Positions 570-43,096 of a stretch of DNA of 53,998 nucleotides are shown here, piece by piece. The position numbers were made by a program, and so were the translations under genes. The stretch is from sequence record NC_079184.1; one strand, given 5' to 3'. How positions within the stretch are numbered: the stretch's first letter is position 1; every line of letters begins with the position of its first letter. The DNA comes from Escherichia phage vB_EcoM_DE15. Below the pieces are notes generated by a model. The model was not told the DNA's origin, did no database searches, and worked only from the letters and a program-made list of their open reading frames with translations.

Positions 570-585
570 ATTAGTTGGACGTGAA
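570..585 (+). promoter_or_regulatory. Putative phage-RNAP promoter (ATTAGTTGGACGTGAA) upstream of the RNAP gene
   Basis: Member of the 10-site intergenic + strand family with consensus ATTAGTTGGATNTGAA. Confidence 0.55.
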
Positions 586-651
586 TTGTGTAATGGCTAC
601 GCTATTATAATCCGTTTCAGTTAAATCATACACAATCTTGGAGACTTACAA

Positions 652-2592
652 ATGACTACTATCACCACTCAAACTATCAAATCCGTTGTTCCTGCTATCA
701 CTGCTCTGGTATACCGTGCCAAAGAGAAACAGAACTATATGCAGCCTCAGACTTGTGCTATTGCTGCCTTAGCCATCTTCAAGATGATGACGTCTTTCAC
801 TCGTGATGACGTTGTCCCTGCCATCGCGATGGTTGAACTGGCTTCTGCTTCTATTGCTGATGCCAACCGTTATAACAACGATTTGAAAGCAATGCACTAT
901 GTTGACCCAGCTATCAACCTCATTGGTCTGGCTAAGCACTTTGGCTTCATCACCATGAACGAAGACAAGTCATTCCAACAGACTGACACATGGGTTGAAC
1001 TGGTTACAACCAAAGACACCGCAGTGCCATTCACTGAGCGTGTTACATCTGAATCTCGTCGCAAGCCTTTCGTTAAAGGTGGCAAAGTTAAGCCATCCAA
1101 AACTCTGAAAGCTGCAATCGAATTCCTGCAAGATACTGAGTACCATGTGGAGACTGAGATGGTTCGCATCATCCAGTCCATGCTTGAGCAACGTACTTAT
1201 GGTGGCTTGCAGATGCCAGAAGCAATCCAGACTGAACTTCATGTTTGGAACAATGCTGTAGCAATGATGAATCAGGACACACTGTATTCTGACTACTTTG
1301 CTGACAACCGTGGTCGCCTGTATCATGTAGCATGTGCTGGTCCTAACCCACAATCTTCTGACTTTGCTCGTTGCTTGTATTCTCACAATGTTGAGAACAT
1401 CGTTAAGAAGTTTAACGAAGATGGTTCTACTACCATTGCATACAATATGTTCATGGCAGAACTGGAAGACATTTCCGGTGGTGAATGGTGCACTGCCAAG
1501 CGTTTGACTTATGTTGCTCAGAATCCAGCTGGTTCACTTGCTCGCATGATGAACATGCCTAAAGCTGAACGTCCTTCCAAGCCATTCACTTATGTTCGTC
1601 TGGCTCTGGATTGGTTCAAGTTTGAGACTACAGGTGAATGCGATTCTCGTGTAGGCTTTGGCTTAGATGCTAAATGTTCTGGTACTCAATATCTGGCATT
1701 CATTGCTGGCAATATGGAAATGGCTCGTGCAACAGGTCTGGTTGATTCTGAGACTAAAGCATCTGACCCATACCAGTTGAGTCTTCGTGAACTGTTGAAG
1801 CTGTTGGACAAGTCTTCAATGAAACCATCTCCTGAAATCATGGATGAATTCTTGAATCCGAAAGCTGGTCGTAAGTTTATCAAAACTCCGTACATGGCTA
1901 TTCAATATGGTGGTGGTAAAGCTGCACTAACTGGTTCATCTGACTTCATCAGCTACATGACGGAAGCTCTCCAGATTCCTATGGAGAAAGCTGAGGCATT
2001 TGCTGAACTGTGTGTAGAAGCAATCCATAACGCATTGGGTGCTAAGATTAACATGTTCATTGAGAAAGCTGCTGAGGCTGCATACAACCGTTGTGTTGAA
2101 CTCAACAAAGAGTACATCACATATCGTCACACTGATGGTCAGGTTGTAATGAAGCCTTGCTTCCCATCTCGTGAAATCTGTGAGGCATTCAGCATTCGTG
2201 TTGACAGCCAAACTCGTGTTATCTTTGGTCAGATTCAGGAGAATAAGCCTTGGACCATTCGTGAATCCAACCCAACTAAAGAAGAATTCAAGCGTACTTT
2301 CGTTGTTAACTACATTCAAGGTATTGACGCATTGGTTGCTCGTACTGTTGCAGTTAAAGCTAAAGAAGCTGGTCTTCGTGGTTTCACTTCAATCCACGAT
2401 TGTTTCCGTTGCTGTTTGGCAGATGCTCCACGTATGATGGAAGTTATTCGTGCAGCATATGTTGAAATCTTTGTAACCAACAATCAATTCGAGAATCTGT
2501 CTAAGCAACTTGGTGGCATTCAGATGTATCATGAGAACATCGTAACTGAAGAACTCCTGATGTCTGAACACGCTTACTACTTCTGTCAATAA
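652..2592 (+). CDS. Single-subunit T7-like DNA-directed RNA polymerase, compact (646 aa)
   Basis: Motifs read by eye: DNRGRLYH, GLDAKCSGTQYLA (motif A), KTPYMAIQYGGG (motif B) and SIHDCF (motif C). RBS GGAG at 640-643. Confidence 0.9.
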   Translation: MTTITTQTIKSVVPAITALVYRAKEKQNYMQPQTCAIAALAIFKMMTSFTRDDVVPAIAMVELASASIADANRYNNDLKAMHYVDPAINLIGLAKHFGFITMNEDKSFQQTDTWVELVTTKDTAVPFTERVTSESRRKPFVKGGKVKPSKTLKAAIEFLQDTEYHVETEMVRIIQSMLEQRTYGGLQMPEAIQTELHVWNNAVAMMNQDTLYSDYFADNRGRLYHVACAGPNPQSSDFARCLYSHNVENIVKKFNEDGSTTIAYNMFMAELEDISGGEWCTAKRLTYVAQNPAGSLARMMNMPKAERPSKPFTYVRLALDWFKFETTGECDSRVGFGLDAKCSGTQYLAFIAGNMEMARATGLVDSETKASDPYQLSLRELLKLLDKSSMKPSPEIMDEFLNPKAGRKFIKTPYMAIQYGGGKAALTGSSDFISYMTEALQIPMEKAEAFAELCVEAIHNALGAKINMFIEKAAEAAYNRCVELNKEYITYRHTDGQVVMKPCFPSREICEAFSIRVDSQTRVIFGQIQENKPWTIRESNPTKEEFKRTFVVNYIQGIDALVARTVAVKAKEAGLRGFTSIHDCFRCCLADAPRMMEVIRAAYVEIFVTNNQFENLSKQLGGIQMYHENIVTEELLMSEHAYYFCQ

Positions 2593-2599
2593 GAGAAAC

Positions 2600-2630
2600 A
2601 GGGCTGGCAATAGCTGGCCCTATTCTTGTT
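2600..2630 (+). terminator. Hairpin plus T-rich tail after the RNAP gene
   Basis: 9-bp stem 2600-2608/2613-2621 (2 G-U pairs), loop AATA, then TATTCTTGTT. Confidence 0.5.
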
Positions 2631-2695
2631 CATCAACAACTAAATCCCAATATTCAAGCAATATTGCTGCATGTAATATTGCTCCGATATTCGAC

Positions 2696-2711
2696 ATTAG
2701 TTGGATATGAA
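2696..2711 (+). promoter_or_regulatory. Putative phage-RNAP promoter (ATTAGTTGGATATGAA)
   Basis: Consensus family member, about 75 nt after the RNAP-gene terminator. Confidence 0.55.
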
Positions 2712-3237
2712 GTAAAAGAATACGGAGAAATATTCCGCATGTCATGTTGAATCATTCTAGAAACATTCAGCATGTCAGCTTTGAGTTACAGCGTTGTAAT
2801 GATGTGGCAATCATTGAACTCCCTGGGAAGGCCACCTATAGTTCCAGCAACCATGACTTAGAGTAGGAATATCTATCCGAAACTTGGACTTCATTGTAGT
2901 TTGGTGTGCTTCATCGTGAGAAAGGTTGTGATAACTTTCGTAAGCAGGTGTTGAACTAACAACAGAACATCGTGTTAGCCATCTTGATTAAGTTACAAGA
3001 AAGTCAACAAATCAGCATGTCTATTAGTAACAATCTTGTTCCTTCTCCTATTATCAAGGCCCACCCACAAGCCGGGAGATAACTTTGACAAGACTGGAAC
3101 TTTTGGACATGCTTCTTTCTTTCTACAAGAATTCGAAAGAAGAGAAGAGTCGGAGCAAAGCCGCGAAACTAATCCCGTAGCCCGCCCCCGATTTTGAGCA
3201 ACAAATATTGTGACAATTGCGTCGCAGTATGGCATGT

Positions 3238-3250
3238 AAATATTGCTACA
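3238..3250 (+). repeat. AAATATTGCTACA, third copy of the left-end 12-mer
   Basis: AATATTGCTACA is identical to 90-101 and 292-303. It directly follows a GCATGT motif. Confidence 0.8.
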
Positions 3251-3672
3251 AATTGGCATGTTGGAATGTGGCAGAATTGTTAGAGGACTAATCACCTCGA
3301 AGATACAATCGTCTACCAATCTGGCATGTTAATTTTGTAACAGTATTTGTGCCAATTTCGCATGTAATAGTTGTATCAGTATTGACCCAATATTCTTGCA
3401 ACCCGCATGAATACTGGCTTCCAGCCAAGCGAAGGCTTTATCATCGCATGTAATATTGTGACAATATTGGGATAAAACCCTTTATTTAAATCATTTAGTT
3501 TATTAATTAAATGGTCGGTTTTCTGTACATAGGTATTCAACTGTTTGTGCCAAATACAAACAAGTTGGCTGCTTCTACAGAACTCCAGTGCTACAAATGT
3601 TCGTGCCAATCTGCTGCAATTTATCTCATTTGGCGGGGTAATATTGTATTAGGTTGGTACGTCATTATTTCG

Positions 3673-3688
3673 ATTAGTTGCATGTGAA
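3673..3688 (+). promoter_or_regulatory. Putative phage-RNAP promoter (ATTAGTTGCATGTGAA), a hybrid with the GCATGT motif
   Basis: 15/16 match to the consensus. It contains the last GCATGT of the array. Confidence 0.5.
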
Positions 3689-3838
3689 TAAGACCAAATC
3701 TCTGTAAATTCTGTGACAGATTTTAGAGAGATTATGTCTCCAAGCTAATCATTGTAGTTCTTCGGCACTTAATGTGTCACATATATAGCCTGTGAAAAAC
3801 GTGTGGTTTATTGCTGGATTGCAACGCGCCCACCAGAC

Positions 3839-3949
3839 TAGGGAGTCCGTGATGGCGGCACACAGGAATACTATATAACTCCCTACAACTTTAAGGTGGA
3901 TTGAGGTAAGACAAGACCTCCACAATCGTTCTGTAGGGAGTTTTCTTTA
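3839..3949 (+). promoter_or_regulatory. Leader with mutually exclusive pairings, terminator-like
   Basis: AACTCCCTACA (3877-3887) can pair with TGTAGGGAGTT (3932-3942, 11 bp, followed by TTTTCTTTA). Alternatively it can pair with the upstream TAGGGAGT (3839-3846, 8 bp). Confidence 0.4.
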
Positions 3950-3964
3950 ACTTGGGAGAATAAA

Positions 3965-4213
3965 ATGGATACTGTGACTAAAGCTGCTTACTTTAAAGAC
4001 TTGTCAGATGGTCAAATATTTTCTATTCGCTCTGTAAAGTGGATTAAAGTAAATGAATCAGACAAGTACAATGCTGTAAAGTTCTTTGATTCAAGCAAGG
4101 CATGTACTTTTAGTGACAATATTGTTGTAAATATTGAAGTCGAATTAGAGCCAGATGATTCAAATGATGAAATCATTCTGCGTAAAACTGTTGGATACAC
4201 TAAAGGATTCTGA
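3965..4213 (+). CDS. Hypothetical early protein (82 aa)
   Basis: ORF with RBS GGGAGA at 3954-3959. First gene after the ORF-free array. Confidence 0.6.
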   Translation: MDTVTKAAYFKDLSDGQIFSIRSVKWIKVNESDKYNAVKFFDSSKACTFSDNIVVNIEVELEPDDSNDEIILRKTVGYTKGF

Positions 4214-4214
4214 A

Positions 4215-4445
4215 ATGGATTATGCACTGTATCACTATATAAGCAGGACTGGGCTTGTTCGTCACGCTTTGGTCAACATTAAAACCAAAGACATACTGTT
4301 GGCTGGCTTGTCAATTTACGAAAACAATTTAGTATGGAAACGTGCTGTACATCCTGGACATGTTTGGGATGTAATTCAGTCTGACAAATACCACAAAATT
4401 GTTGCAATGGCTAACCGACCAGAGCACATCAAGCCGAGGAAATAA
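4215..4445 (+). CDS. Hypothetical protein (76 aa)
   Basis: ATG at 4215, two nt after the upstream stop. In frame with track ORF 4155-4445. Confidence 0.55.
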   Translation: MDYALYHYISRTGLVRHALVNIKTKDILLAGLSIYENNLVWKRAVHPGHVWDVIQSDKYHKIVAMANRPEHIKPRK

Positions 4446-4447
4446 TC

Positions 4448-4636
4448 ATGGACTTCATCGTCTACTTTAAGTTAAATGGTGTAGAGCAAAGTTTGTACTT
4501 CAATTCTTTACTTCGTTTGCAACAGTGGGCGGAGAAGTTTGTTGGTTACGACTTTGATTACATCAATGCATGTACAACTGACGAACATGAGGAAATCGTG
4601 TTCAGTTCTTTAAATCAAATTCTGGAGGCCAAGTGA
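4448..4636 (+). CDS. Hypothetical protein (62 aa)
   Basis: Tightly packed ORF. Confidence 0.55.
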   Translation: MDFIVYFKLNGVEQSLYFNSLLRLQQWAEKFVGYDFDYINACTTDEHEEIVFSSLNQILEAK

Positions 4637-4824
4637 AGAGCAAGATTCTTAAGTCAGCAATGTATAATCTGCATTTCGGACTCAGCTACCCTACAGTAAA
4701 GCGTCAAGAGAAACGATTTTCACGACTACCTGCACGGACTGTTGCCAAAGAGGTTAAGAAGGCGAGCGAGATTCTAAAGTTCGTTATGTGGAAACGTGTT
4801 GTATTAACTCCGGAGACCAAATGA
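4633..4824 (+). CDS. Hypothetical small basic protein (63 aa)
   Basis: GTG start overlapping the upstream stop. Shares the PAR.VAK.V motif with ORF 5084-5248. Confidence 0.5.
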   Translation: MKSKILKSAMYNLHFGLSYPTVKRQEKRFSRLPARTVAKEVKKASEILKFVMWKRVVLTPETK

Positions 4825-5087
4825 GCCAGTTTAAGTTAAAAGCAGATTTAATCGAGTTGGCCTCTTATGAAGAGAAAATCGAATTCATCCAAGAACGTTT
4901 GGTTGTCAACTACGGTGGTTGGATTGATGTTTCTACAAATGAGTTGGTGGTTCGTATCAAGGAAGAGTTTGGTATTGAAATCACTAACAAACAGTTTTAT
5001 GAAGATGTTCTCACAGATAAAGTTATTCGAGGCATCACAAACAATTTCATGTCCAGCTTTATGGAAGGTGGGCCACGTTTAAAATGA
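4821..5087 (+). CDS. Hypothetical protein (88 aa)
   Basis: ATG at 4821 in an ATGA overlap. RBS GGAG at 4812-4815. Confidence 0.6.
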   Translation: MSQFKLKADLIELASYEEKIEFIQERLVVNYGGWIDVSTNELVVRIKEEFGIEITNKQFYEDVLTDKVIRGITNNFMSSFMEGGPRLK

Positions 5088-5248
5088 AGAAGCTCAAATA
5101 TATGACCAAAACGGTTACATATATGGCTATGTATGGTGCTTCAAAGCGTAAGGCTAAGAAATTGGCAAGAGCTGCAAATCCTCGTATGCCAGCACGTAAA
5201 GTGGCCAAAATCGTTAATCTGGTATTTGGCAATTGGAGTATTAAGTGA
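5084..5248 (+). CDS. Hypothetical small basic protein (54 aa)
   Basis: Hand-translated as MKKLKYMTKTV...PARKVAKIVNLVFGNWSIK. ATGA overlap with the upstream gene. Below the track size cut-off. Confidence 0.4.
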   Translation: MKKLKYMTKTVTYMAMYGASKRKAKKLARAANPRMPARKVAKIVNLVFGNWSIK

Positions 5249-5427
5249 ATTATGAGAATCTGCTATTAAGAACTAGTGGTGGGATGCTCATACTGACCAC
5301 ACCTGAGTTTCATTTCACAAGGGTATACTCCGAAGAATTTAAATCCTGGTTCCCAGCAAATCTAAAAACACGATGGCTTAAAGATTGTGTGCCTGTTGGG
5401 AAGAATGTAAAGCTAAGGAGTAAATAA
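5245..5427 (+). CDS. Hypothetical protein (60 aa)
   Basis: GTG start overlapping the upstream stop. Confidence 0.4.
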   Translation: MNYENLLLRTSGGMLILTTPEFHFTRVYSEEFKSWFPANLKTRWLKDCVPVGKNVKLRSK

Positions 5428-5600
5428 TGAACGACCAGCAATTCAACACATTCATGCAGCAAATTAATCATCAAGAACTGATGGATGCCATTAAAGGCAA
5501 GAAGCCAGTCGAACGTCAATATCGTAAAATTGATAATTATATGCCAACAATCATTGCATGTGTTGGTGTTGCTATTGTTCTCTACTTCCTGGTGAAATAA
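5427..5600 (+). CDS. Hypothetical protein with C-terminal transmembrane segment (57 aa)
   Basis: Hand-translated as MNDQQFN...PTIIACVGVAIVLYFLVK. Confidence 0.45.
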   Translation: MNDQQFNTFMQQINHQELMDAIKGKKPVERQYRKIDNYMPTIIACVGVAIVLYFLVK

Positions 5601-5686
5601 TGTCGATTGCTAAGAAACTGTTATTCTGTATCGTAATGTTCCCTATGGTGCTGCTCGTTGTGGGCAGCTTCATGTACTTAAACTAA
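5600..5686 (+). CDS. Possible 28-aa membrane peptide
   Basis: Hand-translated as MSIAKKLLFCIVMFPMVLLVVGSFMYLN. The start overlaps the upstream stop. Confidence 0.3.
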   Translation: MSIAKKLLFCIVMFPMVLLVVGSFMYLN

Positions 5687-5695
5687 GGTAATTAA

Positions 5696-6004
5696 ATGGC
5701 TTCTTTACTCGAATTCTCAAATATTGCAAATGTTGCTAAGAATTCTATTCCGGAAAATCCGGACGTAATTGCGTACATGCGTGTTGATGTAAGTTTGTTA
5801 GCTTTTGTAATGGACCACATCAACCTTGTTGAAGCGCAGTTATCTCAGTCTTACGAAACAGTTGACACTCTTCGTGGACTTCGTACAGCAGAGCAACAGG
5901 CTTATGCTGACCTCATGGAGCAAAAGAACAAGCTCCAAGAACAACTGGCAGACGCACTTCAACAAATTGAAGACATGAAGCCACCAGCAGAATCAACCAA
6001 ATAA
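5696..6004 (+). CDS. Hypothetical protein, coiled-coil C-terminal half (102 aa)
   Basis: ORF with RBS AAGG upstream. Confidence 0.6.
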   Translation: MASLLEFSNIANVAKNSIPENPDVIAYMRVDVSLLAFVMDHINLVEAQLSQSYETVDTLRGLRTAEQQAYADLMEQKNKLQEQLADALQQIEDMKPPAESTK

Positions 6005-6022
6005 TCAAACTTAGGAGTTGTT

Positions 6023-6464: not shown

Positions 6465-6466
6465 TC

Positions 6467-6921: not shown

Positions 6922-6927
6922 TTTCCT

Positions 6928-6954: not shown

Positions 6955-6984
6955 CTGAATATTATTAATTAACTTGGAGCATTT

Positions 6985-7501: not shown

Positions 7502-7785
7502 ACAAGAATTCAATTTTGCGTTATGTTGGTAAAACAAACTACAACTTTACCAACGGTAAGAAATACAAAATCGTCGCAGGTCGTGGTGACGGGGTTCCTC
7601 GCAACAACGGTACACTCGGTGCGTATATTCAATCTCCTTTGGGTTTTGTCGTTAATGATGATAACAGCAATTTATGTTATCGTACATTCTCCGATAATTG
7701 GGAACTTGTGAAAGATTCTGGTGAAGTTAGTTGGTATAAACCTGAATCAACAATCGACCCAATTCCTATTTCAAAATCTATGTGA
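7498..7785 (+). CDS. Hypothetical protein (95 aa)
   Basis: ATGA overlap with the upstream gene. Confidence 0.6.
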   Translation: MNKNSILRYVGKTNYNFTNGKKYKIVAGRGDGVPRNNGTLGAYIQSPLGFVVNDDNSNLCYRTFSDNWELVKDSGEVSWYKPESTIDPIPISKSM

Positions 7786-7828
7786 TTAACAATGGGCATC
7801 TTCTGTAGGTGTCCATGATTAATCCAAC

Positions 7829-7844
7829 ATTAGTTGAATGTGAA
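7829..7844 (+). promoter_or_regulatory. Putative phage-RNAP promoter (ATTAGTTGAATGTGAA)
   Basis: Consensus family member, 22 nt upstream of the macro-domain gene. Confidence 0.55.
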
Positions 7845-7865
7845 TAACAACTACTGGAGCAGATT

Positions 7866-14675: not shown

Positions 14676-15014
14676 ATGGCTAAGATTGTAACCGTAACTC
14701 AGTACGAAGCTAACGATGGTTCCCTGTTCCTGACCGAAGCAGAGTGTAATGCACATGACTTCAAACTGGAAAACGGTGCTAAAATTGAGAAAGCTGCCGA
14801 AGCGTACCTGAACACCGTTGGCGCTATCGACCGTTCTCGCTCCATGCAGAAGAACACCATCGAGCAGTTCCTGGCATTCTACCTGCCGTGGGTTGAAGCT
14901 GGTGAGCCGGAAGTTGAGCGTACTAAGTTCGATACTCCGAAAGAAGCTAAAGTTGCTGACGCAAGTGTTGCCGAAGCTGCCGAAGCTGCTGTTGAAGAAG
15001 CTCCGGTATTCTAA
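14676..15014 (+). CDS. Acidic Ala/Glu-rich protein (112 aa), function unknown
   Basis: Strong ctg/cgt/gaa codon bias suggests high expression. Net charge about -10. Has its own promoter. Confidence 0.7.
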   Translation: MAKIVTVTQYEANDGSLFLTEAECNAHDFKLENGAKIEKAAEAYLNTVGAIDRSRSMQKNTIEQFLAFYLPWVEAGEPEVERTKFDTPKEAKVADASVAEAAEAAVEEAPVF

Positions 15015-16104
15015 GTTGCCGATGGCAAACTTGAGAGACTAAGCTAAATCGATCTGGCATGCACTGGAAGATTTCCGGTGCTGCCTTGAACCCATTCTGA
15101 AAGGAAGAGTGGGCTTCAATGAGCATTCTTGTGATTAGAGTTGGGAGGTAGGCCGATGCCCAAGCTCATGGCCCAGACAAGAGTGTTCATTGAAGTTACT
15201 TCAATATGGATTGTCGCCAAGTTGTGGAAGGACGTGCACACAGATTTAACGAAGAAAAGTAACAGCCTGAGAACTGTGAAAATTTCCCGTTATGTCGTGG
15301 GGAAGTGCACCATAGCTTGGGTTCTTCACGTAGATATTACTCAGATATTTGCGGCTCGCTGAATGTGAGCATCCATATTGAAGTAGTTTTCTGAGTCTTA
15401 CGACGGGCCTAAACTGCCTGAAGTTATTGCGACTGTTTTATTCATTTAAAATAAATGCAAATGATTCTGAAATGCGAGTTGCGGCTTAATTAAATTTAAG
15501 TCCTCTCCGTGGTCTTCCAATCCCACGTAACCAAATTTGGCGCATTGTGGCTTCGAGATGTGATTAATAAATCGGAGCAATAATTAATTTGTATTCTGCG
15601 ATGCAATGCAGGCTTAAGTCCCTCAGTGCGCGTGGGGATGTGACAGAGTACAAACTTAATTATGCAGTTGGATATTTCTAGAGGACGGACGAGCACACTG
15701 GAATGTCTTCAATTGGTTTAGTGTGAGAAGCTATGCCAATATGAAACGTAACTCCTTGGGGAAGTGCTCCTCTGGATTTCCCTCCACACAGGAATCTCAA
15801 GCCTGTGGCAGCGACTTCGAAGCTGCACTGCGTAACCTAAATTCACCCTAAAGTGAGTTGCCCTGAGTATGGAAATAAACTGCTCATAACCGATGGTATC
15901 TACAAAGGTAGATTAAATCAGGTTGCCTGTTGGTACTTGGGTTCAACACCTGCTTGCACTCGCAAAGTAGTGCCTCGTACCTGAGATGAAGTGAGTCGGG
16001 ACCATCAATCCCACGTTATGTCAAAACACAGTAGGCGGCTCACGGATTCTACAAGCCTCGCAGTTCGGGAAAACCTGCGTTATCAAAACCCCCCTCTTTT
16101 ATTT
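15015..16104 (+). ncRNA. ORF-free structured island 2 (candidate large ncRNA(s))
   Basis: No credible ORF. Many hand-foldable hairpins. The 11-mer CAATCCCACGT occurs twice (15518, 16006). Degenerate promoter cores at 15463-15485 and 15666-15675. Confidence 0.3.
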
Positions 16105-16196
16105 GGACGAGTAGCTCAGAAGGTTTGCATTGTGCTCAGTCAGGTAGAGCAATCTGTTCGACAGATGTGTCGTTGGTTCGAATCCAACCTCGTCCA
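16105..16196 (+). tRNA. Aberrant tRNA-like gene (possible pseudo-tRNA or tRNA mimic)
   Basis: 7/7 acceptor pairing GGACGAG/CTCGTCC, T-arm GTTGG-TTCGAAT-CCAAC and D-arm GCTC-AGTCAGGTA-GAGC. There is a ~20-nt insertion after a duplicated GCTCAG. The anticodon arm is only 15 nt (ATCTG-TTCGA-CAGAT). The 3' end is ACCCA. Confidence 0.45.
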
Positions 16197-16228
16197 CCCA
16201 CTTTAATAATAGCAATACTGGAGTCCTT

Positions 16229-23927: not shown

Positions 23928-23951
23928 GGCTCCTTCGGGAGCCTTTAATTT
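23928..23951 (+). terminator. Intrinsic terminator-like hairpin GGCTCC-TTCG-GGAGCC plus TTTAATTT
   Basis: Perfect 6-bp GC-rich stem with a UUCG loop, directly after the highly expressed gene. Confidence 0.6.
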
Positions 23952-28123: not shown

Positions 28124-28309
28124 ATGCGCACAATACAATGTCCTAACTGCCATTATGAAATTGCAGAAGATGATTTCATAACGCAACAATGTCCTATCTG
28201 TGATTCATATATGCCACTAAACCGCCTGTATTTAAAGGCCGATTCTGGTTTAGGCAGCATCATTCGCATCAATCCCGTGCAAACTCAGCCATTAGTGGAT
28301 TGTGATTAA
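28124..28309 (+). CDS. Small zinc-ribbon protein (61 aa)
   Basis: CPNCHY and CPICDS pairs. RBS GGAG at 28113-28116. Lies directly upstream of the terminase gene. Confidence 0.6.
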   Translation: MRTIQCPNCHYEIAEDDFITQQCPICDSYMPLNRLYLKADSGLGSIIRINPVQTQPLVDCD

Positions 28310-36777: not shown

Positions 36778-38226
36778 ATGGCAATTCCAATTTCCGACAT
36801 CATCCAGGTCAACATTGCGGTAAGTCCTAACGCTGTTGCCGTGGAAGGTTTTGGTCCTCTTCTGTTTCTGAGCAAGGAGTTTACTCCAGCCCCAGGCGAA
36901 GCTGTTCCTGTTCGTCAGTATACCAGCATGGCTGCTGTATCTGCTGATTTCCCATCTGGTGAAATTTATCAAGCTGCTCTGGCATGGTATTCTCAGAAAC
37001 CAACTCCAAAGTATTTCCTCGTAGGTGCTATCACCCATGAAGATGTTACTCTGGCAACTCCTGGTACTGTAACCGCATCTTCTGCTGCGACTCTGGAAAC
37101 CATTACTGCGTTAACTAATGGTGTTCTGTCCATTAATATTAACGGCGTTGATAAGTCTACTGCACCAATCAATTTCTCGTCCGCAGACGATTTTGCTGCT
37201 GCTGCATCAATGCTTAATGCTGCATTTGTTGCTGCCGATATTCCTGCAACTGTTACGCAGACCACAGGCACTTTCAAAATCACTACCAACGAAACTGGCG
37301 TAAATTCCATCATTGGTAACGTGTACGGTTCTGCTGCTGCGGCATTTAAACTTGATTCTGCTTCAAGCCCTGTGCATGTTCAAGGTACTGATGAAGTATC
37401 TATCGGCACCGACTTGAATGCAATCTTGAACTCTACGTTCGACTTCTTCTTTGTTGCTATTGACCGCAAATATCGTGGCAGTGCTGATGGTAATAACCAG
37501 ATGACTGTTGCCAAATGGGCAGAAGCAAACGGCAAAGTATTTGGTTGGGCTGATAGCGACCCGCAGATTCTGGTTCCTGGTGCTGAGTCTAGCTTTAAGC
37601 GTGCCAAAGAGCAGAACCTCCAACGCACTCTGTTGGTGTATGATGCGTCTGATAATGGCGACGAGTATCCAGAAGTTTCTATCCTGGGCCGTGCATCGAC
37701 TGTTAACTTCAACGTTGCAAACTCTTCGCTCGTTCTGGCATTTAAACAAGGTCCAGCTATCAAGACTGCTGACTTGTCCCCGAACCAGCTTGCTGCACTT
37801 GAGCGTGTGAATGGTAACGCATTCATCAACGTCGGCGGGAACACTATGTTCTACAACGGCAAGATGGCTGACGGTACTTGGTTCGATACCGTGCAGGGTG
37901 TTTCTTGGTTAACCTCCAAGATTCGTGCTAACGTGTTCAACCTGTTCTACACCTCCACTACCAAGATTCCTTGGACGGACACTGGTGTTGCTCTGGTGAA
38001 CCAGCAAGTAACCCTGGCTCTGGAACTGGCAGTGACCAATGGTCTGATTGCTCCAGGTTACGACAATGAAGGCAACTTCTATCCAGATGGCTACAAAGTC
38101 TTGGCTACCGACTTGGCTCTGATGCAATCTCAGAAAGGTGCTCGTATCTGGGAAGGCACTTCCTTCATTGCAATTGGCTCTGGCGCATTGCAGGGTGCAG
38201 TTATCTCTGGCAACTTCGTTCAGTAA
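36778..38226 (+). CDS. Contractile tail sheath protein (482 aa)
   Basis: Size, codon bias, and the order sheath-tube-chaperone-tape measure. Confidence 0.7.
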   Translation: MAIPISDIIQVNIAVSPNAVAVEGFGPLLFLSKEFTPAPGEAVPVRQYTSMAAVSADFPSGEIYQAALAWYSQKPTPKYFLVGAITHEDVTLATPGTVTASSAATLETITALTNGVLSININGVDKSTAPINFSSADDFAAAASMLNAAFVAADIPATVTQTTGTFKITTNETGVNSIIGNVYGSAAAAFKLDSASSPVHVQGTDEVSIGTDLNAILNSTFDFFFVAIDRKYRGSADGNNQMTVAKWAEANGKVFGWADSDPQILVPGAESSFKRAKEQNLQRTLLVYDASDNGDEYPEVSILGRASTVNFNVANSSLVLAFKQGPAIKTADLSPNQLAALERVNGNAFINVGGNTMFYNGKMADGTWFDTVQGVSWLTSKIRANVFNLFYTSTTKIPWTDTGVALVNQQVTLALELAVTNGLIAPGYDNEGNFYPDGYKVLATDLALMQSQKGARIWEGTSFIAIGSGALQGAVISGNFVQ

Positions 38227-38236
38227 GGTGCGATAA

Positions 38237-38692
38237 GTGAAACAATATTCTTTCTATAATACCGACCTCATTATCGACGGTGCTCGTGTAGATGGTTTTA
38301 CCTCTGGTAATTCCATCATCACTGCTCGTCGTAACGCACCTCAACACCTGCCTGTTATTGACGCGTATGGTAAGTTGGCTGTAGCTACTACGGCTGACTT
38401 ATCTGGTACTATTACTTTCCCGCTTCTGCAAACCGCAGACTGGAACGAAATCTTGTACAGCCGTGCTCAGTTAACTCAGGCAACTGGTCTGTCTGGCAAC
38501 AAATCTCTGTGGCAACCGCTCCAGATTCAGATTGTTGACAAGATGGGTGATGTGCTGGTCAATGGTGTAAACGGCGCTATCTTGCAGCAACCTGCAATTC
38601 AGCGTGGTGTGTCCTTCACGTCTAACGTGTGGTCTATCTTTGTAGAGCGCCTCCAGATTAAGACTGGTTCTTATCCGGAAATTGGCGTTTAA
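38237..38692 (+). CDS. Tail tube protein (151 aa)
   Basis: Size and position. GTG start with RBS AAGGTG. Confidence 0.65.
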   Translation: MKQYSFYNTDLIIDGARVDGFTSGNSIITARRNAPQHLPVIDAYGKLAVATTADLSGTITFPLLQTADWNEILYSRAQLTQATGLSGNKSLWQPLQIQIVDKMGDVLVNGVNGAILQQPAIQRGVSFTSNVWSIFVERLQIKTGSYPEIGV

Positions 38693-38703
38693 TTGGAGTA
38701 AGT

Positions 38704-39162
38704 ATGGCTTGTGAATTGCTTCAACGTGAATTCACAAACTCCAAAGGCGAAACAGTGTTAGTCGTTGTTCGACAATTGTCGGCTTCGGCTGCACTGTCTC
38801 TTCACGCGGAGTTGGTAAGCAAGTTAGGCTCACGAGTATTCCCATTCATCGAAGGTAAATATAACTTCGCTGATATTATATACTTGATGCAGCAAGTAGA
38901 GCATACCGTATTCACAGAATTGTTTAAGCGTGTTATCAGCATGCACTCGTCCATAGATGGACAAGAAATCAAACCTGCATTATATGATATGCAGTTCAAT
39001 GGCGAATTGATGTTGTCTTGCCATGTCTTTGCTTTCGTGCTCGAAGCAAACTTCCTTGATTTTTTCAAGCAAGGGCTCGAAATCAACGAACAGAGACGAT
39101 TGGAGGCGGAGGAAGCATCCAAGCTGGCAGAGCAGAAGAATTCGAGTCCGGAGACAGTTTAG
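38704..39162 (+). CDS. Tail assembly chaperone, zero-frame product (152 aa)
   Basis: Position before the tape measure gene. Contains a slippery site. Confidence 0.65.
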   Translation: MACELLQREFTNSKGETVLVVVRQLSASAALSLHAELVSKLGSRVFPFIEGKYNFADIIYLMQQVEHTVFTELFKRVISMHSSIDGQEIKPALYDMQFNGELMLSCHVFAFVLEANFLDFFKQGLEINEQRRLEAEEASKLAEQKNSSPETV

Positions 39163-39338
39163 TATCCCTGTTCCCCGACATAAAATATTTTCTGCATCGT
39201 CCTATAATCGAAGATAGTTCTCTCTGCAAGTTACGTGAATTGCAAGATGGAACCTATTCGATTATGGACTTATTGCTATTCCACGACATTCTCGATTTGC
39301 GTAAGAAACTCGAACCAGTAGATGAAGACAATGGCTAA
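38704..39338 (+). CDS. Frameshift-extended tail assembly chaperone (~211 aa)
   Basis: The -1 frame encodes ...FPDIKYFLHRPIIEDSSLCKLRELQDGTYSIMDLLLFHDILDLRKKLEPVDEDNG, with no start codon of its own before 39263. Confidence 0.55.
39060..39066 (+). promoter_or_regulatory. -1 programmed frameshift slippery heptamer T_TTT_TTC
   Basis: In-frame X_XXY_YYZ. The -1 frame opens exactly at 39060 (TGA at 39057-39059) and runs to 39338. Confidence 0.6.
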
Positions 39339-42300
39339 TCAAAAAGATTTAATGAAGTTGAGCGTTAATGAGTTAATTGCATTAGGCTCTCAAAGCGGTC
39401 TGACTTTCCATGCTGGTATGAAGAAGTCGCACATGGTTCAACAACTTAGTGCGAGCGCTGCTTCGGGATGGCTGGATACAAATGCAGAATTAATGGGTGG
39501 GTCGTTCGAAGATGACAGTTTGATTACTGAATCTTTGGGTGACTCTTCCATGATTTCAGACGCTGCCCACATTGCACAAGTGCTTTCAAGTGCTGGCTAC
39601 ACAGAAGCATTTCATGCAGCAATGAATGGCCCATCACACCATGTAGAAGCTGTTCACGCATACATGGAAAGGCTTGGCGTTAGCACAGATGATGTGTGGA
39701 TGCACATGCCAAAGCCAAATCCGAACCTACCGCAAGGTAGCTTCAACATGCTTAATGCCTATATGCGAGATACTTTGCAAGGGCATCAAGATATTATGCC
39801 GGAAATCCCAGGCCATTATGCTGGGGATATTATGGCTGAATACTCCACCAACCGTGGAAACATTGCTGACTCCTACAACTACATGGCCCACATGTATGTT
39901 GACCGTGAGCAATATAGCAATCATGAACAATACGCAAGAGACATTAGTCGAGTTGCCAAACGTCTGGAACGAGAGTTACCCTCAGCCTTTAAGGAAGTTG
40001 GGTATACATCCGCATCTAATGTAGGAAATAAATCGGCCCCACATATTTCTTACATGGATGCACTCCCTCAGATTGGTTCTCCTTCGATTGTTTCTGGCAT
40101 TGCACATCCTCGTGCACCTCTTAACGCATCTGGACTTCCTCTTGGTTCTTATGGTTCTGGCATAAATCCAGAATACTCCCTCACTGCCTCGCTAACTGGT
40201 GGCACTGGTTGGAGTGAACCAAGCAAGGCTTTATATTCCTCTATTAGCGAAGCTGTTAAATCTGCTGCCAAAGTTTATTCTGGTTCCAAAGGGATGATGA
40301 ATACTCGTCACGAAGTATCTGACCGTGACATGATTATGGACAGTGCAACTCGCTACACAGATTTGGAAGAAGCCAGAAGCGGATACGAAAACCTTCGTTC
40401 TGAACTTGCAGATGAACCAGCTTATTCTGCATCAAGTGTTCGAGCTATTCTCGAAAACACTTACGATAGAATGGATGCCGAACCTGTTCGCATTCCAAAG
40501 ATGAAGGGAGCTTCACAGCGAGTCGATAAAGATTCACTGTCAACATCTACAGATTTTACAGCACAACTTGGAGAGGCCACCAATTGGAACTCTGCAAGAA
40601 TGCGTCGTGAGGAACTTGCGATTGCAAATATGGATAGTGCTGGATTCCGTGATGTATCAGACTATGGTACAGGACGTTCCGAGTCCCCCGTCCGATTCCA
40701 TGACTTAGAACAGGGCAGCCAAGAGTGGCTGGACTTCCGTAAAAATTATGACATAACTGGCTCAACTGTTGGAACTTTCTTAGGAAACAACCCATACACC
40801 CGACCTTGGGCTGGTATGATTGATAAGATTGGCTTATCTCGTAGTAAAGAGCACAGCGATTTCACCAAAAAGATGTTCGCTGATGGTCACAGGACGGAAG
40901 AAGAAGCACGCGCTCGTGTTGGTAAGGAATTTGGATTCGATATCAAACAAATTGGCGCTATAACAAATGACAACTATCCCGCCTTCATGTATTCTCCTGA
41001 TGGTCTTATTGGGGATGATGCCATTTGGGAGCACAAGAATCCGCAAAGGGCTGGTAAGTTTGCTGACCTTCTTAAAGGCGACCATCCAGACTACATGGAC
41101 CAAATTCAATTTGGTATGCACGTTTCTGGCCGTTCTCGTGCTTTGTTCTCACAAACCATCAACGACGAAACACGTTCGCAGTGGATTGAGAAGGACGAAG
41201 GATGGTACGAAAGAAACCGAAATCGCCTTGATTCTGTGCTTGGCCGTCTTGATGCTGGGCGAGAGTTTGTTAGAAACAATGCTGGATTAGAACGAGAAGA
41301 GCTGATTGCTGGTGCAAGAAGTGCAATGACTGGTGATGGAATCTGGAAAGATATTCGTCAAAGGTCTACTCGTGGCTATTCTGCTGCTGCTGGTACTCCA
41401 GAAGACCCGTTTATTGGTTCACGTTCTTCGTACAATCCAGAAGCATCCTACTCTGACTACAAGCCAAACTTTGTAATGCACGAGCAAAACTTTCCGGCAA
41501 CTACTGGAAATGGTGACACCGGAAATGACTCGATGGCATTGTCTGTTAAGAAAGGTATTCTTGCTGCTCAGGAAGAAAACAGGCAGAAAGGTATTGGTGC
41601 AGATGCAGACTTTGATGGCAAAGCCGATTCAATGGGCTGGAACCGTGAAAGATTTGATGCTGCCAATGGCGGTGGATATTCTGGCGGTGGTGGTGGTCGT
41701 GGCGGCAACTTCACAAGTGGTGGCAACTACTATGATGACTACGGTCGCATGGGTGGTTCGTTAGCTGCTGGCATTGCTGGTGGCAGTATTGGTTCAGCAA
41801 CCAACGGAGTTATGCAAGCATTGATGGCAACTCCTGCTGGACGTATGGCTGCTGTAGGCATTGGTGCTATTCAGATTGGCAATGAAGCTGCTGAATACAT
41901 GAATGACTTTATCGGCAACTCGCTTGATGCTGGTGTGATAAATCCTAATGAATATTCTTCCATGTCGCAAGGCTTGGAGATGTTAGGACTCAACTCACAA
42001 CAAGCGGCACGTCTGAATCAAACCACACATAGTGCCTATAACACCATGCTTAACGGCGACCCCAGCGCCGCTGTGAACATCGTTCGCGGCAGTAGGGGAT
42101 TGCTCACCATAGGTGATATTCGTGCGACAGGCGGCGACCCTGTGGCCCTGGCTCGCATCATGCAGGAAAGGGGCAAGGAGCGTGGCTGGAGTCAGGCCCG
42201 TATCGCAGGTGCTGCCGAAATGGCTGGCCTACAGGGTATGGCGCGAGCATACGACCGCACGGAATACAGCCATGAGCAAGCTGGCTCGGTGGTAGAAGCG

Positions 42301-43047
42301 GGTAGAAACTCCGACTTTGCCGAAGGTATGGCCCAATCGGAAATGTTGCAGGGAAGCCGCGCACGGATGCTGCCGAGCTACAACGTGCCACAAAGTGTCC
42401 TATCTAATGGCGCTTCTGTATTTGAGGCTGGCAGTGATGCACTTGACAGTGTACGCACTGGATTCAACAGGACACGAGAGTTTGCTGGAAGTGTTTACGA
42501 CTTTATTGCTCAGGAAGAATCTGGCGGTCGTGAATACAACAAAGATGGTTCTCGTGTAACAAGTCCAACTGGCGCTCGTGGGATAATGCAGATTCTCCCT
42601 TCGACTGCCCGTGACCCAGGATTTGGAATCAGGCCGTCTGATGGAACTCCAGAAGATGATGCACGAGTTGGTCGTGAATACTATGACGCAATGTACAAGC
42701 GTTATGGCGACCACGAGAAAGCAATGGCTGCTTACACCGATGGTCCTGGCACTGTTGACAAAGCTGTTGATAAGAATGGGTTGGATTGGCTTACTGCTGT
42801 TCCTGCACAGGCACAGAATCGCGTCAAAGCATTCCGTGAATGGTCCAAGTCTTCTCAATCTTTGGAAGAAGGTGCTACAGGGTTTACTCGTAATGGAATG
42901 TCATACGGTCAAACCCAAACTGTTGTTAATGTTAAGATTGATGCTAAGGTCAACAACCAGACTGCTTCTGCTACAGTTGCAATTCCTGGTGGTCAGACTG
43001 TGACTCAACAAATGAACATGAACAACGGTGCGCAACAAAGACGTTAA
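39322..43047 (+). CDS. Tape measure / ejected multidomain protein (1241 aa)
   Basis: Follows the chaperone pair. It has an N-terminal HeH/SAP-like motif, an internal YqaJ-like nuclease domain, a Gly-rich hydrophobic segment, and a C-terminal SLT domain (EESGGREYN...GIMQILPSTA). Confidence 0.75.
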   Translation: MKTMANQKDLMKLSVNELIALGSQSGLTFHAGMKKSHMVQQLSASAASGWLDTNAELMGGSFEDDSLITESLGDSSMISDAAHIAQVLSSAGYTEAFHAAMNGPSHHVEAVHAYMERLGVSTDDVWMHMPKPNPNLPQGSFNMLNAYMRDTLQGHQDIMPEIPGHYAGDIMAEYSTNRGNIADSYNYMAHMYVDREQYSNHEQYARDISRVAKRLERELPSAFKEVGYTSASNVGNKSAPHISYMDALPQIGSPSIVSGIAHPRAPLNASGLPLGSYGSGINPEYSLTASLTGGTGWSEPSKALYSSISEAVKSAAKVYSGSKGMMNTRHEVSDRDMIMDSATRYTDLEEARSGYENLRSELADEPAYSASSVRAILENTYDRMDAEPVRIPKMKGASQRVDKDSLSTSTDFTAQLGEATNWNSARMRREELAIANMDSAGFRDVSDYGTGRSESPVRFHDLEQGSQEWLDFRKNYDITGSTVGTFLGNNPYTRPWAGMIDKIGLSRSKEHSDFTKKMFADGHRTEEEARARVGKEFGFDIKQIGAITNDNYPAFMYSPDGLIGDDAIWEHKNPQRAGKFADLLKGDHPDYMDQIQFGMHVSGRSRALFSQTINDETRSQWIEKDEGWYERNRNRLDSVLGRLDAGREFVRNNAGLEREELIAGARSAMTGDGIWKDIRQRSTRGYSAAAGTPEDPFIGSRSSYNPEASYSDYKPNFVMHEQNFPATTGNGDTGNDSMALSVKKGILAAQEENRQKGIGADADFDGKADSMGWNRERFDAANGGGYSGGGGGRGGNFTSGGNYYDDYGRMGGSLAAGIAGGSIGSATNGVMQALMATPAGRMAAVGIGAIQIGNEAAEYMNDFIGNSLDAGVINPNEYSSMSQGLEMLGLNSQQAARLNQTTHSAYNTMLNGDPSAAVNIVRGSRGLLTIGDIRATGGDPVALARIMQERGKERGWSQARIAGAAEMAGLQGMARAYDRTEYSHEQAGSVVEAGRNSDFAEGMAQSEMLQGSRARMLPSYNVPQSVLSNGASVFEAGSDALDSVRTGFNRTREFAGSVYDFIAQEESGGREYNKDGSRVTSPTGARGIMQILPSTARDPGFGIRPSDGTPEDDARVGREYYDAMYKRYGDHEKAMAAYTDGPGTVDKAVDKNGLDWLTAVPAQAQNRVKAFREWSKSSQSLEEGATGFTRNGMSYGQTQTVVNVKIDAKVNNQTASATVAIPGGQTVTQQMNMNNGAQQRR

Positions 43048-43052
43048 TGAGT

Positions 43053-43068
43053 TGGGGAGAAATCCCCA
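43053..43068 (+). terminator. Hairpin TGGGGA-GAAA-TCCCCA
   Basis: 6-bp stem with a GAAA loop, directly after the tape measure stop and before the promoter at 43081. Confidence 0.45.
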
Positions 43069-43080
43069 GCTTACTTTAAC

Positions 43081-43096
43081 ATTAGTTGAATATGTA
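43081..43096 (+). promoter_or_regulatory. Putative phage-RNAP promoter (ATTAGTTGAATATGTA)
   Basis: The only consensus family member in the late region. Confidence 0.45.

Follow-up and report, generated by a model that had tools for sequence, protein, structure and literature searches.

A repeated, one-stranded element in a phiEcoM-GJ1-like phage is a putative promoter of the phage's own RNA polymerase

In phages of the T7 group (T7, T3, SP6 and K11; Autographiviridae), promoters are read by a single-subunit RNA polymerase (RNAP) of the T7 fold, whose specificity loop reads the bases at -7 to -11; loop and promoter co-vary. In Xp10, a few promoter copies of ~20 bp drive long operons alongside the host RNAP, and two promoters, in one long intergenic region, are experimentally confirmed. 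Closer to the phage analyzed here is phiEcoM-GJ1 (GJ1), reportedly described by Jamalludeen and colleagues in 2008. The GJ1 record (GenBank EF460875, 2008) annotates the element that is our subject as "putative phage promoter 1-9", and the element is therefore already known as a prediction. The ICTV 2022 profile gives promoters as "not yet identified", and in the searchable literature we found no 5'-end or run-off data for any Chaseviridae phage.

We analyzed a 53,998-nucleotide stretch of Escherichia phage vB_EcoM_DE15 (NC_079184.1; hereafter the window), a GJ1-like myovirus (Chaseviridae, Carltongylesvirus). It carries ten plus-strand copies of the 16-base motif ATTAGTTGGATNTGAA, each with zero to two mismatches, against 0.17 +/- 0.40 expected and a maximum of 2 in 100 dinucleotide shuffles (Table 1). 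These are the same ten sites that an initial annotation had listed, and its map is correct at this stringency: nine sites lie in the first 15 kb, one in the structural region and none before the replication module. Its count of ten members was slightly too strict, since it passed over a site at 14251 and a weak candidate at 28291. Allowing up to three mismatches raises the count to 12 (2.34 expected), again all on the plus strand. Leave-one-out position weight matrix (PWM) scores of the sites are 12-28 bits, and the site at 7829 has the top PWM score (30.6 bits); in mononucleotide-shuffled windows (n = 20) the best match mostly reached ~8-13 bits, and 14.7-17.6 bits in three of the 20. We found no PWM match of 11 bits or more on the minus strand of the window or of GJ1. 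Across the 6.5 kb of intergenic sequence in the window, ATTAGTTGGA is the most repeated word, and we found there no other repeated motif available to the RNAP.

A chance or compositional artefact, or the remnant of a duplicated segment, has nothing in its favor beyond the AT-richness of intergenic regions. Such an origin is refuted by the shuffle counts (10 sites against 0.17), the PWM scores and the conservation of the motif across genera; the flanks of most copies are moreover unrelated to one another. We regard its probability as negligible.

Table 1. Motif sites, RNA polymerase gene and promoter-adjacent hairpins in the window. G13 is the preferred start that the promoter reading would predict.
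Feature	Coordinates	Strand	Predicted start (G13)	Remarks
Site A	570..585	+	583	1 mismatch; 66 nt 5' of RNAP start codon
RNAP gene	652..2592	+		646-aa single-subunit RNA polymerase, presumed motif reader; PF00940, E 1.2e-18
Hairpin directly 5' of site B	2649..2691	+		-16.3 kcal/mol, z = -5.0
Site B	2696..2711	+	2709	0 mismatches; 3' of RNAP gene; GJ1 promoter 1
Site C	3673..3688	+	3686	1 mismatch; GJ1 promoter 2; 5' of first small early gene cluster
Hairpin directly 5' of site 7829	7781..7826	+		-19.3 kcal/mol, z = -5.6; no U-tract
Site 7829	7829..7844	+	7842	1 mismatch; 21 nt 5' of 146-aa phosphatase-like gene
Hairpin directly 5' of site D	8305..8342	+		-17.2 kcal/mol, z = -4.4; built like the 7781 hairpin
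Site D	8345..8360	+	8358	0 mismatches; GJ1 promoter 3; 72 nt 5' of single-strand DNA-binding protein (SSB) gene
Hairpin 5' of site E1	12292..12330	+		-23.6 kcal/mol, z = -4.2
Site E1	12346..12361	+	12359	2 mismatches; GJ1 promoter 4; first of three tandem sites
Site E2	12487..12502	+	12500	2 mismatches; second tandem site
Site E3	12624..12639	+	12637	2 mismatches; third tandem site
Site F, ATTAGTTGGAAGAGGA	14251..14266	+		3 mismatches; GJ1 promoter 6; inside 224-aa gene 13877..14551
Hairpin 5' of site G	14531..14558	+		-16.5 kcal/mol (53-nt segment), z = -3.3; overlaps stop codon at 14551
Site G	14583..14598	+	14596	1 mismatch; GJ1 promoter 7; 77 nt 5' of ORF 14676..15014
Weak candidate, ATTAGTGGATTGTGAT	28291..28306	+		16.4 bits; end of 61-aa ORF; ~22 nt 5' of terminase ATG
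Hairpin 5' of site H	43048..43073	+		segment z = -3.7
Site H	43081..43096	+	43094	2 mismatches; GJ1 promoter 9; 23 nt 5' of ATG

The sites lie on the gene strand, upstream of genes. The ten are intergenic, as first described, when judged against plausible genes: the only ORFs that overlap them (399..584, 3511..3687 and 12350..12511) are short mechanical calls, and the annotations of Mangalitsa and GJ1 list none of them as a CDS at the equivalent positions. That description does not extend to the whole family, since the conserved site F is intragenic. Of the 77 amino-acid-invariant degenerate codons in its host gene, only 8 keep the same codon across five genera; three consecutive ones fall on the motif copy, and ATTAGTTGGA is the longest stretch of unchanged nucleotides anywhere in the gene. 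This copy is under DNA-level constraint, and it lacks the otherwise invariant T12 in most genera. The candidate at 28291 scores within the range reached by three of the 20 shuffles and is not significant alone; its position is kept in GJ1 and Mangalitsa and has a divergent form in 4HA13, and we saw no counterpart in PP101 or Y2.

Alignment of site groups A-H over seven genomes of five genera (51 unique sites) shows that the conserved element is longer than 16 nt, running from about -6 to +15 relative to the motif start, with sharp edges and flanks at background level. C at -1 and T at -6 are favored, while TTA, G7, T12 and G13 are essentially invariant, giving a full element of approximately T(T/G)nn(A/G)AC-ATTAGTTG(G/A)A(T/A)N-TG-AA. 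The core ATTAGTTG..A...TG.. is on the coding strand in the ten sites with up to two mismatches and in one with three. The motif ends in NTGAA, with a sharp boundary at the invariant TG and a purine-rich context downstream. The whole forms an asymmetric, strand-specific block of ~20 bp, 20-280 nt 5' of genes or structured RNAs.

Promoters of the T7 group share with it a length of ~18-23 bp, asymmetry, an orientation along the genes, an A/T-rich 5' end and, often, a neighboring RNA hairpin. The ATTAG at the 5' end of our motif resembles the -16 to -12 region of SP6 and K11; the likeness to SP6 drawn in the initial annotation holds for this 5' part and fails for the rest of the motif. Unlike the T7 group, the element has no CACTATAG core and no evident +1. 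The TATA at -4 to -1 and G at +1 of the T7/T3/SP6/K11 consensus are absent, and no start nucleotide stands out: T most often follows TGAA. The setting differs too: the window belongs to a myovirus whose terminal repeats of ~2.7-3.2 kb contain the RNAP gene, and it has 10-12 dispersed predicted copies where Xp10 has its two in a single region.

The annotated GJ1 features have the same sequence as the window sites, written NNNN-ATTAGTTGGATNTGAA. By sequence, strand and synteny, the sites at 2696, 3673, 8345 and 12346 are GJ1 promoters 1, 2, 3 and 4, and those at 12624/12487, 14251, 14583 and 43081 are promoters 5, 6, 7 and 9. GJ1 has two E sites where the window has three in tandem, and it lacks the extra site at 7829, which arrived with an inserted phosphatase-like gene. 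Conversely, the window retains only a decayed form, ATTATTTGGTGATGGG, of GJ1 promoter 8, which lies 3' of the DNA polymerase gene.

Site A, which equals an unannotated site at GJ1 573, lies ~131 nt from the left genome end predicted by end mapping, within the terminal repeat; a site 5' of the RNAP gene is also present in GJ1, Mangalitsa, 4HA13, PP101, Y2 (4 mismatches) and Myduc. Sites B, D and G are syntenic in six of six relatives. Site B begins a ~1.2 kb gene-free stretch that holds the right boundary of the terminal repeat, and most genomes share a conserved leader there, gtaacagaatacgg. Site D precedes an SSB gene assigned via phrog_7364, and site G is the last strong site ahead of the replication and head/tail genes. 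Site C, syntenic in Mangalitsa, PP101, Y2 and Myduc, precedes a cluster whose first ORF starts at 3965. Site H, syntenic in GJ1, Mangalitsa, 4HA13, PP101 and Y2, separates a tape-measure-like gene from a baseplate hub gene (phrog_196). The three E sites lie 3' of an anti-restriction operon, and E1 is the most degenerate copy in the four genera where one was placed (window, 4HA13, PP101 and Y2). About 12 nt 3' of E3 lies a conserved, tRNA-like structured RNA (12650-12724) with six compensatory pairs among the three sequences compared.

A more unusual item at this locus is a host promoter of consensus sequence, perfectly conserved, that lies on the minus strand and opposes E1; in Myduc, a degenerate E1-like copy at 12612 opposes that phage's own consensus promoter.

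The presumed reader of the motif is the product of the RNAP gene, which adjoins the first motif site. An AF2 model of the 646-aa protein (pLDDT 92) has T7 RNAP structures as its top Foldseek matches (E ~1e-18, TMq 0.6), and the protein is thus predicted to fold like T7 RNA polymerase. The catalytic aspartates D339 and D583 of motifs A and C are invariant in 56 homologues. The protein is 99% identical to the RNAPs of phages Bp7, ST32 and SA91KD and 92-99% identical to Carltongylesvirus RNAPs, and belongs to the GJ1-type size class of 630-650 aa; its nearest relative outside Chaseviridae is the Xp10-type siphovirus RNAP (tblastn, ~22% identity). To T7 RNAP it is 14% identical in the structural alignment (646 versus 883 aa), and sequence-level alignment begins only at about T7 residue 408. 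Being ~240 residues shorter, it may differ in the N-terminal promoter-binding elements. Beta-hairpins at residues 506-537 of the model immediately precede the part aligned with T7 residues 777-845.

A PWM scan of relatives, proposed in the initial annotation, placed the motif at syntenic positions in five genera (Carltongylesvirus, Sabourvirus, Suwonvirus, Loessnervirus and Myducvirus) whose RNAPs are 66-77% identical. Beyond these the motif changes with the polymerase, to ATTAGTTGAAAGTGAA at 53% RNAP identity, to a ATTAGTTGAATATGGA type at 44% and to ATAGTTGGTTTGGAA at 40%; at 35% it is replaced by an unrelated hairpin motif. Putative specificity-loop residues shift in parallel: SIRVDSxTR..VIFGQ is constant where the motif is constant and different where it differs, a correspondence between loop and motif as wholes. 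In a Hafnia chromosome, sites occur only in or beside a phage-derived part, starting at the RNAP upstream region, and the bacterial flank has no sites with three or fewer mismatches. By these comparisons, the motif co-diverges with the polymerase and keeps orthologous positions across the subfamily.

The hairpin motif that takes over at the far end of this series is a candidate from Aeromonas phage pAh6-C, with a 5-bp stem, a 3-nt loop and a conserved 3' tail (GGCTC-TNN-GAGCC-AMAAG), on the plus strand in gaps 3' of the RNAP gene; it does not occur in the window. We take the hairpin promoters of the N4 virion RNAP as a lead for this Nefertitivirinae motif only, which could equally be a terminator or processing hairpin.

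An element of 16-20 bp conserved 5' of genes is also typical of a regulator site. The motif might thus be the operator of a phage DNA-binding regulator (repressor, activator or sigma-like appropriator redirecting the host RNAP), with the phage RNAP reading some other sequence; roughly half of the early genes are of unknown function, and the tie between RNAP and motif is computational rather than experimental. Most regulator sites, however, are palindromic and orientation-free, whereas this element is asymmetric and strictly one-stranded. No sigma70-like match on the plus strand (1-18.5 kb and 34-54 kb) coincides with any motif site, and we found no -10/-35 partner at a fixed distance from the motif. 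Given also the lack of an alternative repeated motif for the RNAP and the co-divergence with the RNAP and its loop residues, we consider an operator unlikely. The single-subunit RNAP promoter proposed at the outset is supported by the T7-fold, PF00940-matching polymerase, the asymmetry of the motif, its synteny and this co-divergence.

The initial annotation placed several sites just after a hairpin, and we found an upstream hairpin with z < -3 against shuffles at six of the ten (2696, 7829, 8345, 12346, 14583 and 43081). The hairpin before 7829 begins at the stop codon of the preceding gene. At the E1 position, other genera have different, GC-rich hairpins with TTCG loops, and 4HA13, PP101 and Y2 retain a site H hairpin built from unrelated stem sequences. 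The proposed terminator-promoter module thus stands as regards a stable upstream hairpin but not as regards a U-rich tract, and none of the promoter-adjacent hairpins passed a terminator scan; hairpins elsewhere (2600, 9836, 23928 and 28085) did pass, and some relatives have TTT directly after the stem. The hairpins are real, but most lack a U-tract, few look like true terminators, and any terminator role is putative.

Strand-specific copies in 5' leaders, often after hairpins that are possibly RNase III-type sites, might instead act in RNA, as a processing site, stabilizer or translation enhancer of polycistronic transcripts rather than as a start signal. We think this very unlikely. No conserved partner pairs with the motif, start codons follow it at anything from 21 to 276 nt, and three tandem copies precede a non-coding RNA. 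The copy 131 nt from the genome end has no upstream transcript in the left repeat copy, and the sharp edge at the invariant TG, with its purine-rich downstream context, suits a start site.

Some copies also mark places where gene content varies. GJ1 and Mangalitsa both lack a cassette that lies between 7829 and 8345 and consists of site 7829 and the phosphatase-like gene (7866..8306; phrog_335 phosphatase match). GJ1 also lacks the E2-E3 interval, and that of Mangalitsa is different; the single GJ1 site at 10641 has the left flank of E2 and the right flank of E3, and this hybrid identifies the interval as an indel bounded by motif copies. Motif copies thus bound exchangeable gene cassettes, a further amendment to the initial annotation. 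That they are mainly recombination joints for gene shuffling, with no role in transcription, is nonetheless as improbable to us as a role in RNA: such repeats need no selected orientation, no position relative to start codons and no invariant TG, while sites B, D, G and H, whose copy number never varies, show the same conservation across genera. Repeated promoters are expected to give rise to shuffling as a by-product.

All computational tests able to contradict the reading as a phage RNAP promoter favored it, and the motif is very probably the promoter of the phage's own 646-aa T7-fold RNA polymerase. On this reading, the polymerase would bind the duplex upstream part, ATTAGTTGGA, through the beta-hairpin at about residues 505-537, a candidate because it sits in place of the T7 specificity loop; it would then melt the A/T-rich ATNT and start at or just after the invariant TG.

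Compared with T7, the layout is reversed: promoters crowd the early region and stand before the RNAP gene, while the structural region has a single one and late genes are preceded by almost none. This arrangement counts against the reading in that it does not account for late expression. The earlier suggestion that late genes depend on read-through, another promoter class or host RNAP follows from this map. It is reinforced by a genome-wide depletion of sigma70-like matches (27 vs 38.8, 15 vs 31.5 and 20 vs 31.1) and softened by the weak site at 28291.

The first RNAP mRNA would have to come from the host polymerase, after which the polymerase, acting at site 570, would enhance transcription of its own gene in a positive feedback loop. 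The sites between 2.7 and 14.6 kb would drive early and middle cassettes, including small host-takeover genes, SSB and the tRNA-like RNA, and the upstream hairpins would end, attenuate or stabilize the 3' ends of preceding transcripts. Replication and head/tail genes (15-43 kb) would be expressed mainly by read-through from 14583 past partial hairpin barriers at 23928 and 28085, perhaps helped by the weak site at 28291, and site 43081 would raise expression again for the baseplate, fibre and lysis genes. Repeated copies of the promoter would incidentally double as recombination joints for gene cassettes.

Over its first 15 kb the window shares ~94% nucleotide identity with Escherichia phages SA91KD and ST32 and ~90% with phiEcoM-GJ1 (GJ1), and the 646-aa product of ORF 652..2592, identified by Pfam as a DNA-dependent RNA polymerase (PF00940), is 99% identical to the RNA polymerases (RNAPs) of SA91KD and ST32. 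On these identities we assign the phage to Carltongylesvirus, family Chaseviridae, subfamily Cleopatravirinae (taxonomy per the relatives' records). Pfam detected primase/helicase, family A DNA polymerase, terminase, portal, major capsid and sheath-type proteins downstream of the RNAP gene.

The initial annotation described ten + strand copies of a 16-base promoter-like motif, and we recovered all ten at the stated positions with 0-2 mismatches, compared to 0.17 expected and a maximum of 2 in shuffled sequence. Allowing up to 3 mismatches gave 12 matches against 2.34 expected, every one on the + strand. In a leave-one-out position weight matrix (PWM) the sites scored 12-28 bits; the best match scored ~8-13 bits in most shuffled copies and 14.7-17.6 bits in 3 of 20. 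K-mer counting on the whole genome was swamped by codon bias, but counting in the 6.5 kb of intergenic DNA worked, with ATTAGTTGGA as the top repeated 10-mer. The ten sites do lie between credible genes, and at the matching places neither Mangalitsa nor GJ1 has an annotated CDS for the short ORFs that overlap three of them; the family is nonetheless not wholly intergenic as had been proposed, since it includes a conserved intragenic copy at 14251. With stringent thresholds no site stands before the replication module, as the annotation had noted, or before the head genes.

Features of the window and of pAh6-C: positions and strands
Feature	Position	Strand	Remark
Strong motif sites	570, 2696, 3673, 7829, 8345, 12346, 12487, 12624, 14583, 43081	+	12346, 12487 and 12624 are the tandem sites E1, E2 and E3
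Predicted direct terminal repeat	~439 to ~3150		alignment to annotated ends of Mangalitsa and 4HA13
Perfect sigma70 consensus TTGACA-18-TATAAT (12/12)	12386-12415	-	
tRNA-like structured RNA	12650-12724	+	~12 nt downstream of site 12624
Terminator-like hairpins	23928, 28085		
Hairpin element in Aeromonas phage pAh6-C (L011)	3218, 3248, 3278, 3404, 4005, 4039, 4592, 8393, 9197	+	

Several sites had been described as following a hairpin, and six indeed have a significantly stable one directly upstream. The hairpins are real, but none passes a scan for a hairpin followed by a T-run, so the terminator part of the proposed terminator-promoter modules is putative. At two positions the upstream structure is kept across genera with unrelated stem sequences. 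Promoter-adjacent hairpins may function in attenuation, RNA processing or 3'-end stabilisation and not as outright terminators.

The motif is not new: in the type phage it has been listed publicly as a predicted promoter since 2008. The GenBank record of GJ1 (EF460875) carries nine 'regulatory/promoter' features, 'putative phage promoter 1-9', whose coordinates cover four variable bases and then exactly the window motif. Eight of the nine match window sites one-to-one, including the intragenic copy at 14251 that was absent from the initial list; we looked for the ninth, promoter 8, in the window and found a decayed counterpart. Our statement of prior art is based on the GenBank features and two secondary sources. 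A full-text literature search with the motif string returned unrelated papers only, the ST32, PYps and 'Tiny' papers make no mention of promoters, and neither mapped transcripts nor in vitro studies of such promoters turned up in the literature searched. We read the ICTV profile's statement on Chaseviridae promoters as meaning that none has been identified experimentally.

We compared the window to GJ1, Mangalitsa, 4HA13 (Sabourvirus), PP101 (Suwonvirus), Y2 (Loessnervirus) and Myduc (Myducvirus), whose RNAPs are 66-97% identical to its own. Scanning relatives with the window PWM, a check that the annotation had suggested, gave 9-17 + strand matches per genome and 0-2 on the minus strand, almost all weak, and recovered sites at orthologous positions in five genera. 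Orthologous groups fall before and after the RNAP gene, ahead of the first early cluster and of the SSB gene, in the tandem copies that follow the anti-restriction operon, within a 224-aa gene, before the gene next to it, and between the tape-measure-like and baseplate hub genes. In a logo of 51 unique sites, information is found only from about -6 to +15 of the motif start; TTA, G7, T12 and G13 (motif positions) are nearly invariant, and the flanks are background. We interpret this logo as the phylogenetic footprint of an oriented, sequence-specific DNA signal. We disfavour a reading of the motif as the operator of a regulator: the motif is asymmetric and strand-exclusive, and intergenic DNA holds no other candidate promoter motif.

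We aligned the codons of the 224-aa gene across five genera: 77 positions with degenerate codons are invariant in amino acid, and only 8 of these keep the same codon. The intragenic motif covers three of the eight in immediate succession (TTA GTT GGA), and ATTAGTTGGA is the longest stretch of the entire gene in which no nucleotide changes. This codon-level invariance argues that the DNA at 14251 is under selection beyond the protein. Action of the motif at the RNA level is likewise disfavoured, as the distance from motif to start codon varies, tandem copies precede a non-coding RNA, and one copy lies 131 nt from the predicted genome end. Motif copies also flank a phosphatase-like gene (7866..8306), and GJ1 lacks the E2-E3 interval, its single site being an E2/E3 hybrid; we take copies at indel bounds as recombination between repeated promoters, not as motif function.

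Searching the PDB with the RNAP sequence gave a marginal result (E about 0.003), with similarity to T7 RNAP covering motifs A and C, so we turned to structure prediction. The AlphaFold model (56-sequence alignment) is confident (pLDDT 92), and the structures that it matches best are those of T7 RNAP and mitochondrial RNAPs (E about 1e-18, TMq about 0.6). Compared to T7 RNAP the window enzyme is ~240 residues shorter, largely at the N-terminus, and its AT-rich recognition and intercalating elements may therefore differ from those of T7.

To compare motifs, we collected RNAP homologues and retrieved three genomic contexts. The motif is ATTAGTTGAAAGTGAA in a Hafnia alvei chromosome (RNAP 53% identical), only in and beside its phage-derived part, of the ATTAGTTGAATATGGA type in metagenomic contig L013 (44%), and (A/C)ATAGTTGG(G/T)TTGGAA in metagenomic contig L014 (40%); in pAh6-C (Nefertitivirinae, 35%) it is absent, with a + strand hairpin element instead. 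Set side by side, the putative promoter forms for the window RNAP and for P0085, the RNAP of a 40%-identity relative, are ATTAGTTGGAT versus ATAGTTGGTTTGGAA. A putative specificity-loop segment (residues about 505-537), at the place of the T7 specificity loop, is constant among motif-sharing genomes and different where the motif is altered. Such co-divergence, a correlation and not proof, is the behaviour that would be expected of a polymerase-promoter pair. The interpretation of the motif as a phage-RNAP promoter is supported by every available computational line.

We also considered a sigma70 promoter reading, but no sigma70-like match coincides with any site. In all three segments scanned, such matches are rarer than in shuffled sequence (27 vs 38.8, 15 vs 31.5 and 20 vs 31.1), which suggests genome-wide avoidance of host promoters.

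The pAh6-C RNAP has 843 aa, and the genome is without the ATTAGTTG motif. The gaps after its RNAP gene hold 8-10 + strand copies of GGCTC-TNN-GAGCC-A(A/C)AAG (one genome), a candidate promoter of a different type that recalls the N4 hairpin promoters, or else a terminator. In the Hafnia locus (L012; NJFP02000002, 2778075-2800021) and in L013 (SRR29202170_168), the RNAP gene immediately follows integrase, holin and endolysin-like genes. One of these RNAP relatives is embedded in a bacterial chromosome of 4.8 Mb and is followed there by ArdA and the same promoter motif. These contexts suggest that integrated (temperate or defective) relatives exist of a family described as strictly lytic.

Mangalitsa, Myduc and 4HA13 have a direct terminal repeat of 3.1-3.2 kb at the RNAP end (PhageTerm-based annotations), and terminal repeats were demonstrated experimentally for PYps23T (PYps paper). 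Sites 570 and 2696 fall, along with the RNAP gene, inside the repeat predicted for the window and would therefore each be present twice in virion DNA. A sigma70 promoter annotated in GJ1 corresponds to window 359-388 (9/12), left of the predicted repeat, and would therefore precede only the right-hand RNAP gene copy. An extremely AT-rich tract just left of the predicted repeat start carries three tandem ~30-bp units, GAGACT(A/C)(G/A)AAT... (310-390), which might serve as host promoters or signal end formation. Across the right boundary, ~1.3 kb (2593-3964) holds no credible genes, as does the matching stretch in Mangalitsa, 4HA13, PP101 and Myduc; local repeats there are GCATGTAATATTG-like (about 6 copies, 2660-3480) and TTGTG(C/A)CAAT (5 copies, 3208-3601). 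Rfam found one tRNA and nothing else in the whole window and its two gene-free stretches, including this one. A single 97-nt tRNA-Leu (CAG) lies at 16104-16200 in the sparse 15-18 kb region; relatives have tRNA-Arg or none in its place.

The genome's only perfect sigma70 consensus is leftward, the rest of the genome being all rightward, and has an AT-rich, UP-like tract (12421-12480) upstream. It faces site 12346, so its transcript would cross that site antisense. GJ1, Mangalitsa, 4HA13, PP101 and Myduc share its 12/12 hexamers with differing spacers, and Y2 has 10/12, facing Y2 site 12440; the face-to-face arrangement is thus 12/12 in four genera and 10/12 in a fifth. The integrase-carrying L012 and L013 have a leftward 11/12 promoter opposite the motif copy before the RNAP gene. 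The leftward promoter of the window could be a polymerase switch, a source of antisense RNA or an origin. The structured RNA beyond E3 has an 11-bp acceptor-like stem, a T-arm with a TTCGATT loop, and a variable middle arm without a proper anticodon loop, with compensatory changes in six of its pairs (window, Mangalitsa, 4HA13); neither ARAGORN nor Rfam called it.

The simplest model for the late genes has transcription reading through from 14583, perhaps together with a weak late promoter. GJ1, Mangalitsa and 4HA13, unlike PP101 and Y2, retain a weak match that the window has at 28291, ~22 nt ahead of the terminase ATG. The gene after the DNA polymerase gene has a moderate internal match in the same three relatives, decayed in the window. 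In Xp10, few phage promoters can serve long operons, and the RNAP serves the late R genes.

Taken as a whole, a programme unlike that of T7 is conceivable, if rather unlikely: a compact RNAP encoded inside a long terminal repeat would activate its own gene and drive all early and middle cassettes, leaving most late genes to read-through. Site 12346 and the consensus host promoter facing it would then act as a switch from host to phage polymerase or, alternatively, as a transcription-activated replication origin, an idea modelled on the tandem phi1.1A/B origin of T7.

With the prediction public since 2008, little discovery value remains in it, and its practical value would come through verification; the interest lies in that experimental step and in the unusual programme around the motif. 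The comparative set offers 51 unique sites, variants at 53%, 44% and 40% RNAP identity, and candidate specificity-loop residues. If verified, the 646-aa RNAP and a defined ~20-bp promoter would make a new orthogonal transcription system, smaller than that of T7. The layout raises the question of how late genes are timed in a myovirus with nearly all phage promoters in the early region, and verification would fill a gap stated by the ICTV profile for the whole family Chaseviridae.
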